The notes under the pieces were generated by a model. The model did no database searches and had not been told where the DNA came from. It saw nothing but the letters and a program-made list of their open reading frames with translations. Shown in pieces: positions 9,863 to 45,100 of a stretch of 64,000 bases of DNA (its first letter is position 1; each line of letters begins with the position of its first letter). Position numbers and translations under genes: made by a program. Source of the stretch: an uncultured bacterium (lineage in GTDB: Bacteria; Actinomycetota; Acidimicrobiia; Spongiisociales; ZC4RG35); assembly GCA_963753285.1 (NCBI GenBank), contig CAVWBT010000003.1, positions 225,039 through 289,038 on the forward strand. The letters run 5' to 3'.

Positions 9863-10546
9863 TCAGTCGACCCGATCCACCTTGTCCTCGTCCCAATAGT
9901 CGAGGCGATCGAGCGGCATGACGACGGCGGTCATCACGTTCATGAGGTGCGCCGTGATCCGCTTGAGGTACCGGTTCAGCAGCGCTCTCGGGACAGCCGG
10001 CCCGGCAGACGAACCCTCACGCACGAGGGTCGAGACCTCGTCGTCGAAGTCCGACGTCCACTCGTCCATCTGGGTCAGCCTGGCAGTTGCCTGCTCGGCA
10101 TTCCGCTCGGAGAAGATGACCGCCGTCTCGTTGATGAGGTCCTGAGTGCGCGCGAACCGATCTGCCCACATCGCCTCGTCGGGTGTTCCTTTCAACATGA
10201 ACCCGTCGGTGGTCAGATCCCAGATGTTCTTCGAATAGTCACCGACTCGTTCGATGTCCTTGATGATCGACATGTACACCAGCATGAGCGGGTAGTCGGC
10301 CGCACCGGCCACACCGGCGTGGATGATCAGTTCCCTGCGGATCGAACGCTCGCCCTTGTTGACCTGTCGGTCCGACTTGCGGAGATCCTTCCCGATCTCG
10401 GCGGGATCGACCCGCCCGAAGACGGCATCGGTGGCGAGACCGAAGGTCGTGTTGTTGTCGGCGAGCATCTCCTTCACGCTCTGTTCGATTCTCTCGAGAG
10501 AACCCTCCGAGCTTGACCTGAAGAAATCGAGCACCATGTGACTCAC
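9863..10546 (-). CDS. DUF47/PhoU-like phosphate-transport regulator (YkaA-type)
   Basis: 227-aa helical protein paired with a Na/Pi cotransporter gene immediately upstream on the same strand (8-bp gap). Confidence 0.75.
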   Translation of the reverse strand: MSHMVLDFFRSSSEGSLERIEQSVKEMLADNNTTFGLATDAVFGRVDPAEIGKDLRKSDRQVNKGERSIRRELIIHAGVAGAADYPLMLVYMSIIKDIERVGDYSKNIWDLTTDGFMLKGTPDEAMWADRFARTQDLINETAVIFSERNAEQATARLTQMDEWTSDFDDEVSTLVREGSSAGPAVPRALLNRYLKRITAHLMNVMTAVVMPLDRLDYWDEDKVDRVD

Positions 10547-10553
10547 CTCACCT

Positions 10554-11705
10554 CTAGAAGATCACGATACCGAGAATCGGCACGACAACGAACAGGCCGA
10601 CCACGTATGCCACGACGAGTTGCTTCCGCTCGGCCGCCACGGCTGCCAGCTTCGTGGCGAGGATGATCGGGACGGCGCGCAATCGCGGGATCGGGTAGAA
10701 CAGCAGGATTCCCGAGATGTTGAAGAGCGTGTGGACGAGCGCGATGGTCAACGCCTCGGGCCGATCGGCTGCCACGGACGCAAGCAGCGCAGTGACCGTC
10801 GTGCCGACGTTCGCTCCGAGCGTGACGGGGTATGCGTTCTCGAGCGAGAGCACTCCGGCGGCCACCAGCGGGATGAGCACGGAGGTCGTGATCGACGAGC
10901 TCTGAACGGCGATGGTGATGATGAGCCCGATGAACATCGCCCCGATCCCCGCCCCCTTGCTGAGGACTGCGTTGAGCGACCGTTCGATCCTGCCTTCCAT
11001 GACTGCTCGCATGTTCTTCGTGATCATCGCCAGCGCGAGGAAGATCAGCGCGAGCCCGGCGACGAGCAGCGCAACACCGAGCACGGTGGACGAGTCCGTG
11101 AGACTCTCGACGCCGCTCTCGAACCACGACACCGGCACCTTGATGGCGTCTTTGATCGGACTCCCCTCAGGCGCAACCCCGGCCAGCGACGTCTGCCCGG
11201 CGAGCACGTCGGTCAGCGCAGTGGCCGCCGAGGAAAGGAAGCCGGTCAGGAGCTCGAGAGGCAGGAAGACGATCACCGCCAAGAGGTTGAAGAAGTCATG
11301 AACGGTCGCTCCGGCAAAGGCACGGCGGAACTCGGCGCCACGCCTGACATGCCCGAGCGAGGCGAGCGTGTTGGTGACGGTGGTGCCGATGTTGGCTCCC
11401 ATGATCATCGGGACGGCTGCGCCGACCGTCAACGCCCCCGAGCCGACCAACCCGACGATGGTCGCCGTCGAGACGGAGGACGACTGCACGAGCACGGTGG
11501 CGAGTATCCCGGCGAACAGGCCGGCAATCGGGGACGAGACCGTATCGAAGAGTCGATCGGCGAAGTCGGCGCCGAAGGCCTTGATGCCAGACTCGAGTCC
11601 CTTGACACCGACCAGGAAGATGAACAAGAGCCCCAACACGAGCACAACGCGGAGCCAGGTCCTGGGCTGTCTCGTCGTTACCGGAGGCGCGGCTGGAGTG
11701 GTCAC
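10554..11705 (-). CDS. Na+/phosphate cotransporter family protein (NptA-like)
   Basis: Duplicated Na/Pi-cotransporter repeats (SSSVSTATIVGLVGSG..., QSSSITTSVLIPLVAAG); the true start is uncertain (ORF runs to 11750, but a PHO-like repeat overlaps the 5' end, so a downstream GTG near 11705 is proposed). Confidence 0.78.
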   Translation of the reverse strand: MTTPAAPPVTTRQPRTWLRVVLVLGLLFIFLVGVKGLESGIKAFGADFADRLFDTVSSPIAGLFAGILATVLVQSSSVSTATIVGLVGSGALTVGAAVPMIMGANIGTTVTNTLASLGHVRRGAEFRRAFAGATVHDFFNLLAVIVFLPLELLTGFLSSAATALTDVLAGQTSLAGVAPEGSPIKDAIKVPVSWFESGVESLTDSSTVLGVALLVAGLALIFLALAMITKNMRAVMEGRIERSLNAVLSKGAGIGAMFIGLIITIAVQSSSITTSVLIPLVAAGVLSLENAYPVTLGANVGTTVTALLASVAADRPEALTIALVHTLFNISGILLFYPIPRLRAVPIILATKLAAVAAERKQLVVAYVVGLFVVVPILGIVIF

Positions 11706-11712
11706 GGCGCCG

Positions 11713-11745
11713 GGAAGGTAACAAGCCGGTGAACGGCAGGCGAAC
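11713..11745 (-). promoter_or_regulatory. Possible PHO box (GTTCGCCTGCC / GTTCACCGGCT / TGTTACCTTCC, 11-nt phased units) upstream of the Na/Pi cotransporter gene
   Basis: Two good and one weak GTTCRC unit at 11-nt spacing. Confidence 0.4.
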
Positions 11746-11845
11746 GCCATTGGTCCTTTTCTCGCCGCCGAAAGCCGGAAAACCCGACGTCCGGCCGGTG
11801 TCGGGTCAGCCCGAAGGCGCGCCGCCGGCCGCCGATGTGGAGGGC

Positions 11846-13894
11846 TCAGGCCTCTCGCGCCGCGCGAGCCTCTGCCAGCGCGCGGAGGGTGATGTGGGAG
11901 TCGACTCCGATCTCGCTGGGGACCTTCTTCCAGTCGATCCCGGGGCCGAGCTTCCAGGCGAGTGAATCGTCGGCCAGGAGCACCTCGAGGATCTCGTCGA
12001 TGCGGAACTGGAGGTCGGGATCCTCGACGGGGGTGATGGCCTCGACCCGACGGTCGAGGTTGCGGGGCATCAGATCGGCCGAGCCGATCAGGTACGTGCG
12101 TTCTCGACCCCGGGCTCCGAACCGGAAGACACGAGAATGCTCCAGGTAGCGCCCGACGATCGACCGCACGGTGATGTTGTCACTCATCCCGGGGATCCCC
12201 GGGATGAGACAGCAGATCCCTCGAACGATCAGGTCGACCCGGCAGCCGGCCTCCGAGGCTGCGTAGAGCTCTTCGATCAGCCGCTCGTCGACCAGCGAGT
12301 TCATCTTCAAGGTGATGAGCCCGTCGCTGCCGCGTGCGGCCTCGTCACGGATCATTTGGGTGATCCGCGACCGGAACGAGTTCGGCGAGACCAGCAGCTT
12401 CCGGTAGGTGGTCTGCTGGCTGTAGCCGGTCAGGTAGTTGAACAGGTCCGACAGATCGGCGCCGATCGCGGGGTCGGCGGTCAGCAGCCCGAGGTCCTCG
12501 TAGATTCGGGCGGTGGCGTCGTTGTAGTTGCCCGTGCCGATGTGGGCGTAGCGCCGGATGCCCGCCTCCCCGTCGTCACGGACCACCAGCGCGATCTTCG
12601 TGTGCGTCTTCAGGCCGATCACGCCGTAGACGACGTGGACGCCCTCGTCTTCGAGGCGCTGGGCGAACTCGATGTTCCGCTCCTCGTCGAATCTCGCCTT
12701 CAACTCCACGAGCACGACGACCTGCTTGCCCTCCTTCGCGGCGTACATCAGCGATTGGATGATCGGGGAGTTCGCCGAGGTGCGATAGAGCGTCTGTTTG
12801 ATCGCGAGCACGTTCGGATCGTGAGCCGCCTGGTCGATGAACGCTGCAACCGACGAGGTGAAGGAGTCGTACGGATGATGGACCAGCAGGTCGCCTTCGC
12901 GGATCGCGTCGAAGATCCTCGCCGGTCCCTCGGCCGTGGGGGCAAGGCGCGGCTGGGTCACCCACGACCAGCGATCGTGCAGGAGATCCGGCCGCTCCAT
13001 CTCGGTGAGCACCCCCAGCCCGGACATGTCGAGCGGACCGTCGACGACGAGCACCTCGTTCCTCGTGAGGCTCATCTCCCGGATCAGCAGATCGAGCACG
13101 TCGTCGGTCATGGTCGGAGCGACTTCGAGCCGGACGACCCGGCCGAACCCGCGCCGTGTCAGCTCCGATTCGATCGCTGCGAGGAGATCGTCGCCCTCCT
13201 CTTCCTCGATCTCGAGATCGGCGTTGCGGGTAACCCGGAAGACGTGGTGCGCAACCACTTCCATGCCGGGAAACAGCATGTCGAGGTGGGAGGCGATGAC
13301 CTGTTCGAGTGGCACATAGCGCTCGCCGTCGGGGAGCACGACGAAGCGGGACAGGATCGGCGGGACCTTCACGCGGGCGAATCGGGTGACGCCGGTGTCG
13401 GTATTGCGAACGAGCACCGCCAGGTTCATCGAGAGGTTCGAGATGTATGGAAAGGGGTGGGCGGGGTCGACCGCGAGCGGTGTGACGACGGGGAACACCC
13501 GCTCACGGAAGATGTCGTCGAGGTAACTGCGGTCCTCGTCGTCGAGGTTGTCGTAATCGTCGAGGGCGATCCCGGCGGATGCCAGTGCGGGGGCGACGTC
13601 TTCACGGAACGTTCGATGGGCGCGTGCGTACTGGCGCGCCGTCTCCTCGCGGATCAGCAGCAACTGTTCGGTCGGCTCGAGACCATCGGGTGAGTTGCCG
13701 TGCGCTCCGTACGCTTCGAGCTCCATCAGCCCGGCGACGCGCACCATGTAGAACTCGTCGAGATTCGAGGCCCAGATCGAGAGGAATCGAGCACGCTCCA
13801 GCAGTGGCAGATTCGGGTCCTCGGCCAACGCCAGGACACGGCTGTTGAAGTCGAGCCAGGACAGCTCCCTGTTGCGATATCGATCGGTCCCCAT
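11846..13894 (-). CDS. ppk: Polyphosphate kinase 1
   Basis: 682-aa ORF with PPK N-domain (NRELSWLDFNSRVL), the catalytic His region and two PLD-like C-terminal domains; CATAAT hexamer 8 nt upstream of the ATG. Confidence 0.95.
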   Translation of the reverse strand: MGTDRYRNRELSWLDFNSRVLALAEDPNLPLLERARFLSIWASNLDEFYMVRVAGLMELEAYGAHGNSPDGLEPTEQLLLIREETARQYARAHRTFREDVAPALASAGIALDDYDNLDDEDRSYLDDIFRERVFPVVTPLAVDPAHPFPYISNLSMNLAVLVRNTDTGVTRFARVKVPPILSRFVVLPDGERYVPLEQVIASHLDMLFPGMEVVAHHVFRVTRNADLEIEEEEGDDLLAAIESELTRRGFGRVVRLEVAPTMTDDVLDLLIREMSLTRNEVLVVDGPLDMSGLGVLTEMERPDLLHDRWSWVTQPRLAPTAEGPARIFDAIREGDLLVHHPYDSFTSSVAAFIDQAAHDPNVLAIKQTLYRTSANSPIIQSLMYAAKEGKQVVVLVELKARFDEERNIEFAQRLEDEGVHVVYGVIGLKTHTKIALVVRDDGEAGIRRYAHIGTGNYNDATARIYEDLGLLTADPAIGADLSDLFNYLTGYSQQTTYRKLLVSPNSFRSRITQMIRDEAARGSDGLITLKMNSLVDERLIEELYAASEAGCRVDLIVRGICCLIPGIPGMSDNITVRSIVGRYLEHSRVFRFGARGRERTYLIGSADLMPRNLDRRVEAITPVEDPDLQFRIDEILEVLLADDSLAWKLGPGIDWKKVPSEIGVDSHITLRALAEARAAREA

Positions 13895-13912
13895 TGCCTG
13901 GGATTATGGCAG

Positions 13913-14283
13913 GGAGGGCTCGCTCGCTGCGCTTCGCGGCGTGTCATCGCCTTCGGCGGCGTGTCTTCCGGCCTATGGGGCCGGAGCGTGTCTTCAAGCC
14001 TGGCGGCTTGAGCGTGTCTTCGCCTTCGGCGGCGTGTCCGCGACCTCATGTCGACAGCGCGCCATGAGGCGGATCGAACGACGCGTCGACTCTGAGCGCA
14101 TCGCAATGCTCGAAGCGACGCAGGTCGCGGAGAAGCTCACGAAGTGAAGATACGCTCACGGAGTGAAGAAACGCTCTGCGGAGGCCCCCTGGGGCCGGAG
14201 CAGAAGAGACGCTCCGAGCCACTGGCGAGGAAGACACGCTGCCAAGCGAAGCGAGCTCAGCGAGCGAGCTCAGCGAGCGAGGC
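13913..14283. repeat. 371-bp structured intergenic element with two degenerate inverted arms carrying multiple GCGTGTCTTC-like decamers in opposite orientation
   Basis: Left arm 13913-14040 has about five forward decamers (GCGTGTCTTC, GCGTGTCATC, GCGTGTCCGC); right arm 14141-14283 has four reverse-oriented degenerate copies (GAAGACACGC, GAAGATACGC, GAAGAAACGC, GAAGAGACGC). Each arm carries a CCGGCC-N5-GGCCGG mini-palindrome; termini are GGGCTCGCTCGCTG and CAGCGAGCGAGGCC (13 of 14 complementary). The centre is the palindrome CCTCATG-N12-CATGAGG. Confidence 0.5.
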
Positions 14284-14881
14284 CACCGAGCAGGAAGCGC
14301 TCGAGTTCGGCGGCGACCTCGGGGTAACGGGCTTCGGGGCTCTCGGCGCTGATCAGGATCCGGGCGGCCGACATGATCGTGTCCTGCATGAACCGGCCGG
14401 CGATGTCGACGGCCATCGGACGCAGCTCGCCTCGTTCCACGGACACTCGATAGGCGCCGACCATGTCCATGGCGAGCTCGGAGTGTGCTGCGCGGATCCG
14501 CTCCTGGGCCTCCGACGACAGCCGGGGCAGCTCGCGGTGGAGGATCAAGCCCATCACCGGATCGGAGACGACGAAGTGCACAGTCGACTTCGCGAGCTCC
14601 ACGAGGCGCTCCGTTCCCTCCGTGGAATCAAGGCGTGCGATCAAGTCATCCACGACCCCGGGCAACCGATCCTCGACCAACGAGGCGATGAGGTCGTCTT
14701 TGTCTCGGAAGTACTCGTACAGCGTTGTCCGACCGATGCCTGCCTCGTGAGCGACCTCGCCGAGTGAGATGTCGGCCGACCCGATCTCCTCGAGCAGACT
14801 GTGGGTCGACTCGAGGATCTCTCGACGCGTCTTGAGCTTGTGCGCCTCGATGTTCTCGGCTCGAATCCTCGGCATATCCAC
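14270..14881 (-). CDS. TetR/AcrR-family transcriptional regulator
   Basis: N-terminal HTH (ILESTHSLLEEIGSADISLGEVAHEAGIGRTTLYEYFRDKDDL); the last codons overlap the right terminus of the inverted-repeat element. Confidence 0.85.
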   Translation of the reverse strand: MDMPRIRAENIEAHKLKTRREILESTHSLLEEIGSADISLGEVAHEAGIGRTTLYEYFRDKDDLIASLVEDRLPGVVDDLIARLDSTEGTERLVELAKSTVHFVVSDPVMGLILHRELPRLSSEAQERIRAAHSELAMDMVGAYRVSVERGELRPMAVDIAGRFMQDTIMSAARILISAESPEARYPEVAAELERFLLGGLAR

Positions 14882-14925
14882 AGGGTAACCCAGGTCGGGC
14901 TCCTAGGCCCCGGTGACGTCCGCAA

Positions 14926-15652: not shown

Positions 15653-16720
15653 ATGAGGATGCCGGCGGTGATCATCGGGACCGGGGTAGCGGTCCCACCG
15701 AACAAGGTGACGAACCACGACCTGGCGAAGATCATGGACACGTCCGACGAATGGATCCGTTCACGCTCCGGTGTCGTCTCCCGCCGCTTCGTCGACCCGG
15801 GGATCGGGACGTCGGATCTCGCCACGGAGGCGGGGACCGCAGCGCTGGCATCCGCGGGTCTCGGGCCAGATGACGTCGATGCCCTCATCACGGCGACCAT
15901 GACACCGGACCTCACCAATCCTGGCATCGCCGGGCTGGTACAGAACAAGATGGGTCTCGGCCACATCCCGGTCTTCGACATTCGCCAGCAGTGCTCGGGT
16001 TTCCTGTACGCCCTGGACATGGCCGACGCGTTGATCGGTTCGGGTAAGGCCGAGACGGTGGCGGTGATCGGCGCCGAGGTGCACGCCGGCTATCTCCCCT
16101 GGGGTGCCACCTGGGACATCGTCTTGGGCAAGACGGATCGCGAGCCGACACCCGAGGAGTACTCCCGCAACACCGAACACCGCGCTTGGAGCGTGCTCTT
16201 CGGAGATGGCGCAGGAGCGATGGTGTTGCAGCGATCGGACGCAGCCGATGTCGGCTTCCTCAGTTCCAGCCTCCACACCGACGGCGAGCATTTCGAGCTG
16301 ATCATCGTGCCTGGCCTGGGGTCGCTCCAGCGGCCGTTCGCCTCCGAAGCCCAGCTCCAGGCCGGCCTTCACATGCCCCGCATGGACGGAGGAGGGCTCT
16401 ACCGCCAGGCGGTGCGGCTCATGCCAGACTCGATCAAACTGGCGCTCGACGACGCCGGACTCGAAGTCGACGACCTGGGCGTCGTGATCGCCCACCAGGC
16501 CAACGAGCGCATCCTCGCAGGGGTCCGCAAGCAGCTCGGCGTCGACGAAGAGCTGGTGCCGTCCAACATCGACCATTGGGGCAACACCACCGCAGGGACC
16601 CTCCCGATCCTGTTCCACGAACTGTGGGAGCAGGGCCGGATGGAAGCCGGTTCGATCACCTGCTTCACCGCCTTCGGCGCCGGCGCCCACTGGGGCGCCA
16701 TGCTCTACCGCCATCCATGA
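15653..16720 (+). CDS. fabH: 3-oxoacyl-ACP synthase III (KAS III)
   Basis: Active-site Cys context (QQCSGFLYAL), the His/Asn-bearing C-terminal half, and N/C-terminal KAS III domains. Confidence 0.9.
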   Translation: MRMPAVIIGTGVAVPPNKVTNHDLAKIMDTSDEWIRSRSGVVSRRFVDPGIGTSDLATEAGTAALASAGLGPDDVDALITATMTPDLTNPGIAGLVQNKMGLGHIPVFDIRQQCSGFLYALDMADALIGSGKAETVAVIGAEVHAGYLPWGATWDIVLGKTDREPTPEEYSRNTEHRAWSVLFGDGAGAMVLQRSDAADVGFLSSSLHTDGEHFELIIVPGLGSLQRPFASEAQLQAGLHMPRMDGGGLYRQAVRLMPDSIKLALDDAGLEVDDLGVVIAHQANERILAGVRKQLGVDEELVPSNIDHWGNTTAGTLPILFHELWEQGRMEAGSITCFTAFGAGAHWGAMLYRHP

Positions 16721-24705: not shown

Positions 24706-24870
24706 TTCTGCGGGGACTGAATCCCCAGCACCCCAACGCCCAAGGCCTTGCCACCCACAGGCTTCCCGGCAGCAACAGCCCTCTCGTCCGCCGAGTCGAC
24801 CGAGGACCGTCTCACAACACACGCCCCGGACCAAGCGGCGCTCCAACACCCCGCCAAACCCGCCAAGCGA

Positions 24871-24925
24871 ACGTAGGACGTAGAACGTGGAACGTGGAAC
24901 GTGGAACGTGGAACGTGAACGTAGG
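24871..24925. repeat. Heptanucleotide tandem array (ACGTRGA)x8; on the minus strand this reads (CACGTTC)n
   Basis: Units ACGTAGG, ACGTAGA, ACGTGGA x4, ACGTGA, ACGTAGG read directly; the array ends 9 nt before the tldD start codon and abuts a TAGGAT hexamer. Confidence 0.9.
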
Positions 24926-31638: not shown

Positions 31639-32229
31639 TCAGGGACGGTTCGGCTGACCCTTGGACGTTTCCGTGCTGGACTCGTCGTCGCTCGAGTTGT
31701 CGTCCGACTTGCCGTTGTTCGACTTGTCGTCCGACTTGCCGTTGTTCGACTTGTCGTCCGACTTGCCGTTGTTCGACTTGTCGTCCGACTTGCCGTTGTT
31801 CGACTTGTCCTTGGCGTCCTTGGCCGCCTTGGCCTCGTCCGACTTGCCCTTGAGCGTCTCGTACAGGCTCGACAACTCCGACAGCTTCGAGCCTGTGTCC
31901 TTCTTCAGCTGGCCGGGCACTTCGCGTTCTAGCAACGCCTCGTGCACTTCCTGGGCATTCGCGGGACCCTGTCCCTCGCCCTGACGGTTCGAGTTCTCGT
32001 GCTTGGCGACCCAAGCGTCGTAGACGCCGAGCGCCTCGATCAGGCCCTCGTCGACGACGATCGTGTCACCATCGCCTGCAAGCTCGGACGCAGCCGTCAG
32101 ACCGAGGGCCACGCCCTCGACGGCGCGATCGAAGTTCGGGGCGGGCTGTGCGCTCGCCTGGGCGGCGGACACGAGCACGAGAAGTGCTCCGGCGAGCATG
32201 GAGGCGATGAGGCGACGGATACTGATCAT
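31639..32229 (-). CDS. Secreted low-complexity protein with (KSDDKSNNG)n tandem repeats
   Basis: Signal peptide MISIRRLIASMLAGALLVLVSAAQASA; C-terminal half Lys/Asp/Ser/Asn-rich with four to five identical 9-aa repeats. Confidence 0.6.
   Translation of the reverse strand: MISIRRLIASMLAGALLVLVSAAQASAQPAPNFDRAVEGVALGLTAASELAGDGDTIVVDEGLIEALGVYDAWVAKHENSNRQGEGQGPANAQEVHEALLEREVPGQLKKDTGSKLSELSSLYETLKGKSDEAKAAKDAKDKSNNGKSDDKSNNGKSDDKSNNGKSDDKSNNGKSDDNSSDDESSTETSKGQPNRP
31699..31806. repeat. Four perfect tandem copies of a 27-bp unit (GTCGTCCGACTTGCCGTTGTTCGACTT) within the coding sequence
   Basis: Read directly; the in-frame 27-bp (9-codon) period encodes KSDDKSNNG on the minus strand. Confidence 0.9.
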
Positions 32230-32270
32230 TTCGTCAGACAAGTACAAACCTCACTCTGAGTGTTACACCT

Positions 32271-41612: not shown

Positions 41613-42822
41613 CGCCCCCACCCAACAGCAGGACCGCCGCCGTCGCCTCCTCCGCACGCTCGTCGGCCAAGGAGGCGCCTACCTCATCCTCATCGTGTTC
41701 GCGGCGATCATGCTGTTCCCGTTCGTCTACATGGCGACCGGCGCCGTCAAGACGCCATCGGACACGTTCCGGTATCCCCCGAAGGTGCTCCCTCGCGTGC
41801 CACTCGTCGCCGAGATCGACGGCGAGGAACGAGAGGTGTACTCGTTCGACTTCGGCAGCGGCGAGGAGCGTGCGGTGCTGGTGGAGACCGGGGTCGAGGC
41901 CGGGCTGTTCGTCGACCCGGACGATCCCGAGCGCACGGTGCCGTGGCCGCTGGCACTCGCCACCGAGACCGGCGCTTCCGTCACCGTGGCCGGTGAGAGC
42001 CTGCCCACCTACGACGTCGAACTGGTCACCGGCACCGAGACACTGGCCCTACAGCGGAACACCGCCGTCGGGGAGTTCCGACAACTCGACGGTGACGCCG
42101 TCACCTACGCCGTGCCCCGAACCGCGACGCCGGCGGAGGAGATCGAGGCCCAGTGGGGCAACTTCTCCGAGGTCATCGGCTTGCGCGACCTCGACCGGGC
42201 ACTGACCAACACCATGCTGGTGACGATCCTGGTCGTGGCCGGGACGCTGTTCACCTCGATCATGGGCGGGTACGCATTCGCTCGGATCCGTTTCCCCGGA
42301 CGCGACAAGATGTTCCTCGCCTATCTGGGCTCGATCATGATCCCGTTCATCGTGCTGATCATCCCGCTGTTCCAGTTGATGGTCGGTCTCGGATGGGTGA
42401 ACTCGATCGGATCGCTGGTGTGGCCGTTCCTGTTCAACGCCTACGGGACGTTCCTGATGCGCCAGTTCTTCATCGCGATCCCCAAGGACCTGGAGGAGGC
42501 CGCGTTCATCGACGGAGCCAAGCGCGGGCGGATCCTGTGGACGATCTTCGTGCCACTCTCGTGGCCGGCGATCGCCACCCTCGCGACGTTCATGTTCCTG
42601 TACGCCTGGAACTCCTTCATCTGGCCACTCGTGTCCATCAACGTGGCGAACGCCGACAACTTCGTGCTCACCCTTGCCCTCCAGCAGCTGGGTGGAACCG
42701 CCGGCGAATCACCGAACCTGCTGTTCGCCGGGATCGTCCTGTCGGTGCTGGTGCCGTTCACCGTGTTCGCGTTCGCCCAGCGCTACTTCGTCGAGAACGT
42801 GGCCACCAGCGGGATCAAGTGA
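41605..42822 (+). CDS. ABC sugar transporter permease (MalG/UgpE type) with a large extracytoplasmic loop after TM1
   Basis: EAA motif EAAFIDGAKRGRILWTIFVPLSWPAIATL; six TM helices; overlaps the upstream permease by 8 bp. Confidence 0.85.
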   Translation: MPDAPTQQQDRRRRLLRTLVGQGGAYLILIVFAAIMLFPFVYMATGAVKTPSDTFRYPPKVLPRVPLVAEIDGEEREVYSFDFGSGEERAVLVETGVEAGLFVDPDDPERTVPWPLALATETGASVTVAGESLPTYDVELVTGTETLALQRNTAVGEFRQLDGDAVTYAVPRTATPAEEIEAQWGNFSEVIGLRDLDRALTNTMLVTILVVAGTLFTSIMGGYAFARIRFPGRDKMFLAYLGSIMIPFIVLIIPLFQLMVGLGWVNSIGSLVWPFLFNAYGTFLMRQFFIAIPKDLEEAAFIDGAKRGRILWTIFVPLSWPAIATLATFMFLYAWNSFIWPLVSINVANADNFVLTLALQQLGGTAGESPNLLFAGIVLSVLVPFTVFAFAQRYFVENVATSGIK

Positions 42823-42839
42823 GGCTCGCTGGCGCTCGC

Positions 42840-42881
42840 ACGTCTCACGTCGCACGTCTCACGTCTCACGTCTCACGTTCG
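42840..42881. repeat. Heptanucleotide tandem array (ACGTCTC)n: ACGTCTC, ACGTCGC, ACGTCTC x3, ACGTTCG
   Basis: Read directly; begins 18 nt after the permease stop and lies 48 nt upstream of the TAGGCT hexamer preceding galT. Confidence 0.9.
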
Positions 42882-45065: not shown

Positions 45066-45100
45066 CCGTCTCACGTCTCACGTCCCACGTCCCACGTTGA
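45066..45100. repeat. Heptanucleotide tandem array (ACGTCYC)n: CCGTCTC, ACGTCTC, ACGTCCC x2, ACGTTGA
   Basis: Read directly; begins 2 nt after the gnd-like stop, 72 nt upstream of the TAGCCT hexamer preceding purC. Confidence 0.85.

Follow-up and report, generated by a model that had tools for sequence, protein, structure and literature searches.

A REP-cluster-like foldback element, probably one copy of a dispersed repeat family, between ppk and a TetR-family gene of an uncultured acidimicrobiian bacterium

Small, non-coding, hairpin-forming sequences dispersed in intergenic DNA include the Correia/NEMIS elements of Neisseria, the ERIC sequences and the BOX elements (A-Bn-C) of Streptococcus pneumoniae, all of which differ between strains and may provide a stop codon or a terminator. 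Correia elements are bounded by defined terminal inverted repeats of 26 bp with a TA duplication, whereas BOX elements have complementary ends that enclose internal modules in variable number. Among the repetitive extragenic palindromic (REP) sequences, a CGTC-tagged superfamily has been described, in which TGTC is listed as a tag variant, the stem measures 8-9 bp and opens with A/T pairs, the loop has 4-5 nt and a CCA tail is present (Di Nocera et al. 2013, PMC3733652). The CGTC REPs are reported there without an identified transposase, and Actinobacteria are unmentioned. Here, we analysed a stretch of 64,000 nucleotides from an uncultured bacterium of the Acidimicrobiia (contig CAVWBT010000003.1), hereafter the window, and in particular the spacer between ppk and the gene of a TetR/AcrR-family regulator. 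In our reading, the 353-bp element that occupies this spacer belongs to a family of palindromic repeats, dispersed and non-autonomous, in a lineage of the Acidimicrobiia, and is best described as a REP-cluster-like foldback element; we give this reading a probability of about 0.75. Indeed, the element is dispersed, and close relatives differ by its gain, loss and inversion, which argues for selfish repeat DNA and not for a control region of ppk.

Presence, orientation and dispersal of the element among relatives

The spacer spans positions 13895-14269 (375 bp), and within it the element begins right after the stop codon of TetR and ends 5 nt upstream of the ppk extended -10 motif. A preliminary description of this DNA had recognised the element and given it 371 bp; the element is real, and the comparison with relatives sets its bounds better at 13917-14269. 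The locus has the following features.

11846-13894, minus strand: ppk (polyphosphate kinase 1), with the Pfam PP_kinase N, middle, C1 and C2 domains; downstream neighbour of the element
13903-13911, minus strand: extended -10-like motif of ppk, TGCCATAAT, 8 nt before the ATG; native flank, outside the element
13917-14269, no strand: whole foldback repeat element, 353 bp, delimited by the empty site of L144 and the remnants of L229 and L231
14270-14881, minus strand: TetR/AcrR-family regulator gene, with Pfam TetR_N and TetR_C_24; upstream neighbour of the element

Related loci are designated by L and a number. In the public assemblies, protein P0001 is 100% identical to the TetR of the window, and L118 is another assembly of the same species (99.44% identical to the window over 6.6 kb). 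Between these two assemblies, about 20 substitutions and 2 indels are densely packed upstream of the DUF3159 gene (window 15685-15860, L118 2018-2192), a divergence that could be a recombination tract or an assembly error.

Two neighbouring sites were compared among relatives: the A site is the TetR-ppk spacer, and the B site is the DUF3159-TetR spacer, the next one upstream. Percentages give the identity of each TetR to that of the window.

A site, window and L118 (100%): full element
A site, L232 (93%): full element, opposite orientation
A site, L144 (93%): empty, 47-bp spacer
A site, L229 (92%) and L231 (91%): one terminal unit or the terminal repeat alone
A site, L230 (89%): full copy
A site, L119 (88-89%): remnant
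A site, L019 (87%): full copy, inverted
B site, window: no element, 44 bp
B site, L144, L232 and L230: full copies
B site, L019: full copy, inverted
B site, L119 and L229: decayed copies

In the more distant L120, L123, L233 and L235, both sites are free of the element. The A and B copies of one genome are 88-90% identical over about 213-250 bp in L019 and 89% identical in L230, whereas orthologous copies compared between these genomes are only 80-86% identical. Since paralogues are more alike than orthologues, re-copying or gene conversion is indicated. TetR is bracketed by two elements in L019 (5846-7060), L230 (1052-2235) and L232 (1-1022); the bracketing copies are direct in L019 and L230, as in a composite transposon, and opposite in L232, and TetR is syntenic in all relatives.

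These comparisons bear on a proposal of the preliminary description, namely that the repeats form a locus-specific operator array through which TetR or PhoP would control ppk. The position invites it, as many short repeats stand between a regulator gene and ppk, in a cluster with PhoU and Na-Pi transporter genes. However, at the same promoter the element is absent in the closest relative (L144) and in the outgroups L120, L123, L233 and L235, is reduced to a remnant in L229, L231 and L119, and occurs elsewhere at unrelated loci, also between convergent genes. Furthermore, the heptamer GCGTGTC is not enriched in the rest of the window, and the sites are irregularly spaced (19-38 nt). The comparative data thus already refute the operator array in large part, and we find it hardly credible.

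The putative ppk promoter lies outside the element. A TGnCATAAT-like motif is kept before ppk in L019, L119, L144, L229 and L231, whether the element is present or not, and in all of them the extended -10 stands 8-9 nt before the ATG; in L144 the promoter core TGGCATAAT is found 8 nt before the ATG with no element beside it. In the window, the CATAAT hexamer reported 8 nt upstream of the ppk ATG is present, and TGCCATAAT could work as the ppk promoter, judging from its sequence and position. The conservation of the extended -10 in relatives suggests a leaderless ppk mRNA, with a predicted start about 7 nt downstream of TGCCATAAT. The sequence GGTAnCCTGTGGrTATG is kept directly before the ATG of TetR (window 14882-14925; L019, L119, L144, L229 and L231), and both mRNAs are probably leaderless. 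Downstream of the element, a PhoU-domain protein, an Na/Pi cotransporter and ppk form a phosphate cluster (9863-13894, all on the minus strand), whose gene order is kept in L119 and L120.

At each of the two sites, orientation differs among close relatives at least twice. The junction with the TetR stop codon (TGA followed by GCTCGC..TTCGC..GCGTGTC) is unchanged in both orientations, and when the window is compared with L232, the first unit past this stop looks collinear, with at least 250 interior nucleotides inverted. All this could be expected of an invertible segment, in which a recombinase or RecA would flip the interior through the arms and the orientation would matter for how the downstream gene, ppk or (at the B site) TetR, is expressed, since both orientations are found at the same two sites in different genomes of close relatives. 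We consider such a switch improbable. Some copies stand between convergent genes, which would have little use for a switchable promoter, the ppk extended -10 is conserved outside the element, a consensus scan found no promoter-like site inside it and no recombinase gene was present among the scanned neighbours. Moreover, the two orientations were never seen in one sample, and flips may come from palindromic DNA or from copy-templated repair. The flips fit in-situ inversion through the inverted arms or repair from another copy in either orientation, and re-insertion at a hot spot is conceivable.

The family is found well away from ppk. A profile built from nine copies recovers all the dispersed members at E = 1e-53 to 1e-73, and the family spans at least five unrelated gene contexts, with elements between convergent GNAT and rhomboid genes (L135), between convergent His_Phos_1 (His-phosphatase) and NUDIX genes (L142), beside an aminotransferase fragment and an OTCase gene (L138), behind the stop codon of a further gene (L143) and, in L144, between DUF3159 and TetR. 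At least two copies are carried by each of the genomes L019, L230 and L232. At sites with both flanks visible, a stop codon adjoins the element on one side or on both; L138, cut by the start of its contig, is the exception. In this locus (1-549) the element abuts a 74-aa open reading frame (ORF) with no Pfam match, read as the C-terminal fragment of an aminotransferase, upstream of the OTCase gene. This gene was either cut short by the element, or the contig is a chimera joined at the repeat. The contigs of L138, L143, L229, L230 and L232 start or end inside an element, as multicopy repeats make short-read assemblies do, and a Logan contig whose TetR is identical extends only 7 bp beyond the stop codon of that gene.

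The dispersed members came from a scan of metagenomes with a 20-base core pattern. Two exact decamers searched against the genome collection gave at least 117 matches, nearly all of them coding tandem repeats or chance, with L019 as the only related one. In viral contigs, three heptamers gave noise only and two conserved cores gave 0 matches; no match was found in the PLSDB plasmids searched in distant mode. In the literature, the decamer sequence turned up only in primers and aptamers, and a search for hairpin-bearing miniature inverted-repeat transposable elements (MITEs) of Actinobacteria yielded no report. As named from TetR homologues at 58-66% identity, the carriers would belong to a narrow lineage of uncultured Acidimicrobiia-like Actinomycetota. 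A Saprospiraceae metagenome-assembled genome (L114, 4100-4440) holds unrelated opposed arrays of a 19-nt unit, AGCGTGTCATCCTGAGCGT, which have only GCGTGTC in common with the element.

Architecture of the element and of its repeat unit

The spacer had been described as one degenerate long inverted repeat, and it is: paired arms of 41, 27 and 21 nt are 76%, 85% and 86% complementary, and they are the longest inverted-repeat pair listed in the whole window. The outermost pair, of 21 nt, contains the 13 of 14 complementary terminal positions noted earlier. The parts of the element are listed below.

13917-13938, plus strand: outer terminus of the ppk-proximal arm, GGCTCGCTCGCTGCGCTTCGCG, inverted repeat of 14246-14287
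13939-14039, plus strand: arm Y (read here as its reverse complement), five forward units
13939, 13959, 13986, 14012 and 14032, plus strand: GCGTGTC units of arm Y, each followed by a palindrome
13949-13957 and 14022-14030: arm Y palindromes, GCCTTCGGC
13967-13985: arm Y palindrome, TCCGGCC-TATGG-GGCCGGA
13994-14011: arm Y palindrome, TCAAGCC-TGGC-GGCTTGA
14040-14128, no strand: central region, closed by GCGACCT/AGGTCGC and with hairpins of its own
14129-14136: innermost, degenerate unit of arm X, GCTTCTCC
14129-14239, minus strand: arm X, reverse units at 14230, 14203, 14165 and 14146
14137-14147, 14156-14166, 14175-14204 (a 30-nt hairpin) and 14213-14231: spacer hairpins of arm X
14240-14283, minus strand: TetR-proximal terminus, tandem 13-nt unit CTCGCTCGCTGAG, 2.8 copies

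In the left arm, the decamer GCGTGTC(T/A)TC starts at 13939, 13959, 13986 and 14012, and a shortened copy, GCGTGTCC, at 14032, in agreement with the about five forward copies first counted. The four decamers reported in the right arm were found at 14146, 14165, 14203 and 14230, all in reverse complement and each with at most one mismatch. A CCGGCC-N5-GGCCGG palindrome had been assigned to each arm; it is exact in the left one, but the right one has GGCCCC-CT-GGGGCC instead, inside a longer hairpin. The central palindrome CCTCATG-N12-CATGAGG lies at 14044-14069 as described.

Of the 12 decamer matches (at most one mismatch) in the whole 64-kb window, 8 fall in 300 bp inside the element. The window total, 12 against 8.5 expected, is not above chance, so it is in the clustering that the signal lies. 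The exact heptamer has 18 matches in the window, 6 of them in the element. The family profile matches the window at 13924-14251. Only chance ORFs overlap the element, as had been stated, and gene callers made no calls inside the elements of the fetched loci; a consensus scan for promoters and terminators over 13700-14500 found none.

At the TetR-proximal end, the 13-nt tandem repeat spans 14245-14281 (2.8 copies), and its last copy (14270-14283) is made of the final TetR codons, G-L-A-R, and the stop. The preliminary description had taken this terminus to encode the last five residues of TetR and to be followed by a 13-bp tandem duplication. The segment holds four codons and the stop, and these are native, because the TetR of L144 has the same G-L-A-R end, closing with GCT CGC TGA, at a site empty of the element. 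The duplication is therefore present as such, but it consists of the native TetR end and a nearly identical element terminus. In L142, the NUDIX gene beside the element ends with the 12-mer CTCGCTCGCTGA, as TetR does, which suggests that the element terminus can supply last codons and a stop, or that such sequences are preferred targets.

Across the family, elements measure about 260-390 bp and, once oriented alike, proceed from a terminus rich in GCTCGCTCGC through the X arm, the centre and the Y arm to the outer terminus. The terminus GCTCGCTCGC..TTCGC..GCGTGTC is common to L232, L144, L142 and L019. The innermost part of the X arm is GAGCGTGTCTTCACTTCGTGAGCGTGTCCGC, and the Y arm starts with GCGGACACGCCGCCGAAGGCGA(G/A)ACACGC. 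Two inner blocks are near-invariant in the nine copies, while the flanking genes of those genomes differ by about 20% in DNA; in the window they correspond to GCGTGTCTTCGCCTTCGGCGGCGTGTCC (14012-14039) in arm Y and to GAGCGT.TCTTCACTTCGTGAGC in arm X. Outer parts and unit number (2-6 per arm) vary between copies. A stem closes the centre (60-100 nt), which forms further hairpins and differs in sequence among three subfamilies; that of the window is homologous to the centre of the B copy of L144 and, when inverted, to that of the A copy of L232.

The repeated unit consists of GCGTGTC, one T and a GC-rich palindrome that opens with TC and closes with GA, with a stem of about 7 bp and a loop of 3-5 nt, and the two arms carry such units in opposite orientation around the centre. 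Further palindromes of this type are TCAGGCC-TGGC-GGCCTGA and TCGGGCC-TGGC-GGCCCGA, and shorter ones are CGCC-TTC-GGCG and TCAC-TTC-GTGA. Over 61 spacers, the mean minimum free energy was -6.1 kcal/mol, against -3.0 kcal/mol after shuffling. In 15 aligned units, 3 of the 6 stem pairs show double changes, and none of 500 shuffles reached the observed covariation score. Taken together, spacer folding and stem covariation indicate that the palindromy of the unit is maintained, which fits hairpins in single strands, or sites for dimeric proteins, and is REP-like.

The whole element also folds strongly, at -213 and -237 kcal/mol as RNA on the two strands (z = -7.5 and -8.7) and with z = -6.8 as DNA; no shuffle matched it in either case. 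Such very stable folds on both strands, together with conserved sequence blocks and compensatory changes that keep the hairpin stems, would be compatible with a structured non-coding RNA, as proposed earlier: a TetR 3' untranslated region or an antisense transcript, forming a multi-branched hairpin that could, for example, act as a protein sponge presenting GAAGACACGC between hairpins. Several results make this very improbable. A search of Rfam up to E = 10 gave no match (best E = 0.79, with bits far below the gathering thresholds), and the RNAalifold covariation term of +0.51 means none, the long-range pairs being invariant heptamers. The better-folding strand is inconsistent: in the window the reverse complement is favoured by 24 kcal/mol, in L142 the other strand by 25 kcal/mol. 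The element also takes either orientation relative to the flanking genes. Furthermore, the decamers of the two arms pair with each other and would therefore not be available in single-stranded form.

Shorter repeats also occur elsewhere in the window. Directly past a stop codon, at 42825-42838 (region 42822-42880), there is a solo palindromic unit of the family, CTCGCTGGCGCTCG, followed by a tandem heptamer array (CACGTCT x5.7, 42839-42878). The same CTCGCTGGCGCTCG occurs in all full copies of the family except three (the window's own element, L118 and L135), in the decayed copy of L119 and in the outgroup L235 (2270-2283). Two more intergenic heptamer microsatellites, with units similar to those of this array, are found at 45067-45097 (CACGTC(T/C) x4.4, just past a TGA) and at 24869-24922 (GAACGTG x7.9, the reverse complement of CACGTTC). 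At 31692-31852, the minus-strand ORF 31639-32247 contains 4.4 tandem copies of a 27-nt unit (98% matches), probably a coding repeat.

Origin, propagation and possible effects

The element would be selfish DNA, unable to move by itself and copied in trans to further sites. In a REP/REPIN-like route, an enzyme would recognise the tagged hairpins in single-stranded DNA, and we somewhat prefer this to a DDE transposase that binds repeated subterminal sites. Unit duplication would then make the arms grow and shrink, and the palindrome would promote deletion, leaving terminal remnants such as those of L229, L231 and L119, which fit, as well as inversion or re-copying in either orientation.

The DDE transposase corresponds to a classical MITE, which would descend by internal deletion from some insertion sequence or transposon and transpose replicatively or by cut-and-paste, and in which the GCTCGCTCGC termini would be the terminal inverted repeats and the GCGTGTC arrays the subterminal transposase sites, as in Tn7, Mu, Tn402 and IS21. 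This is possible, although rather unlikely. The size of about 260-390 bp with no conserved ORF agrees with it, as do the terminal inverted repeats, the 7-10-mers repeated and inverted between the two ends and the homology of the whole element, centre included, between copies at different sites. On the other hand, the inner arms are more conserved than the termini, unit number varies freely between copies, and palindromic spacers with compensatory stem changes are not explained by transposase sites in double-stranded DNA. No target-site duplication was found, nor a transposase with matching ends in any fetched locus. The suggestion of a MITE-like non-autonomous element in the preliminary description therefore holds in that the sequence is dispersed, multicopy and polymorphic, but neither a target-site duplication nor an autonomous partner was found.

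Some observations also weigh against a REP-cluster-like foldback element. The family profile found no second copy over the 64-kb window, so only one full copy is there. Direct repeats flanking the copies, which the preliminary description had proposed to look for in other copies, were found at none of the filled, empty and remnant sites, although the flanks have diverged too far for this negative to be firm. Compared with the empty site of L144, the window lacks 28 nt of spacer, which indicates replacement rather than simple insertion, and part of the polymorphism may thus be the loss of an old resident copy. The best conserved parts are the inner arms and not the termini, which is unusual for a transposase-driven MITE, and the near-invariance of the two inner blocks could also mean a host function. 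Finally, no mobilising enzyme was found, whether a REP-associated tyrosine transposase (RAYT) or another, and no transposase was present among the Pfam-scanned neighbours.

A bolder form of the foldback reading can be proposed, which we regard as doubtful. The family could be the first REPIN-like system to be reported from Actinomycetota, a self-propagating multi-REP foldback whose TGTC-tagged hairpins would be cut as single-stranded DNA by an enzyme of the HUH/Y1 type or another; its palindromic arms would flip it in situ at fixed loci, orientation would vary within populations, and the near-invariant inner blocks would be the recognition core of the enzyme.

Regarding local effects, at ppk the element would replace the -35 region and leave the extended -10 in place. 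At TetR it would form a large bidirectional 3' hairpin, which at most would block read-through or stabilise the TetR 3' end. At this site the element probably only insulates TetR from the ppk promoter and has no dedicated regulatory role.

For the annotation of the window, this removes a tempting false lead, as the repeats are to be taken neither as operators of ppk, PhoP or TetR nor as an RNA gene. It also documents a repeat family in a poorly studied, uncultured actinobacterial class, with an unusual architecture of two opposed tag-plus-hairpin arrays around a conserved core. Turnover at fixed sites is fast, since genomes with about 90% identity in the neighbouring genes have a full, inverted or remnant copy there or an empty site. 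Elements of this kind interrupt short-read assemblies, can add or replace last codons and can displace parts of promoters, and they are useful as markers at the strain level. Should a dedicated enzyme come to light, the family would carry REP/RAYT-type biology, or a new equivalent of it, into Actinomycetota.

Comparison with known systems

Several short transposase-binding repeats per end, inverted between the ends, are typical of Tn7, Mu, Tn402 and IS21-type elements. Those repeats are 19-22 bp long, have no palindromes between them, flank transposition genes and come with duplications of 5 bp or similar; at the element described here, neither repeats of that length nor flanked transposition genes nor duplications were seen. 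The foldback (FB) elements of Drosophila have long inverted arms made of tandem short repeats, with variable arm length and a non-repeated centre, and are prone to rearrangement and inversion, but they are eukaryotic, kilobase-sized and of another repeat chemistry. They are an architectural analogue only, and no homology is implied.

Among the small dispersed elements of bacteria, we know of none in the Correia/NEMIS, ERIC or BOX groups that is built from opposed arrays of tag-plus-hairpin units. Unlike Correia elements, the present one shows no duplication, and its termini are its less conserved part. With MITEs, which measure less than about 600 bp, it shares a small size (353 bp), the absence of coding sequence, terminal inverted repeats, dispersal and polymorphism; it differs from them in having no demonstrable duplication and in being best conserved in the inner arms. 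As, in addition, no autonomous partner was found and the units are REP-like, the term MITE in the strict sense is not established for it.

With REP sequences, and with the BIME and REPIN arrangements of them, the likeness extends over more traits. Each unit joins a short and imperfect palindrome, rich in GC, to a conserved terminal tag that stays unpaired and here ends with TGTC; stems show compensatory changes; units form variable clusters and inverted pairs that make large hairpins; and the copies are extragenic, at the 3' ends of genes and sometimes over their last codons, and no target-site duplication was found for them. Unlike REPs, the element is made of two opposed head-to-tail arrays of 3-6 units around a homologous centre, and the whole 260-390 bp is the unit of descent. 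REPs number tens to thousands per genome, and those of the GTAG type flank a RAYT gene. Compared with CGTC REPs, its tag is the 7-mer GCGTGTC, its stems are of about 7 bp and open with TC...GA, and a CCA tail is missing, each palindrome being succeeded at once by the next tag; as the stem and tail features differ, the element does not fall in the families CGTC-1 to CGTC-4. Nevertheless, REP, BIME and REPIN sequences, and above all the CGTC-tagged REPs, are the closest to the repeated unit of this element.

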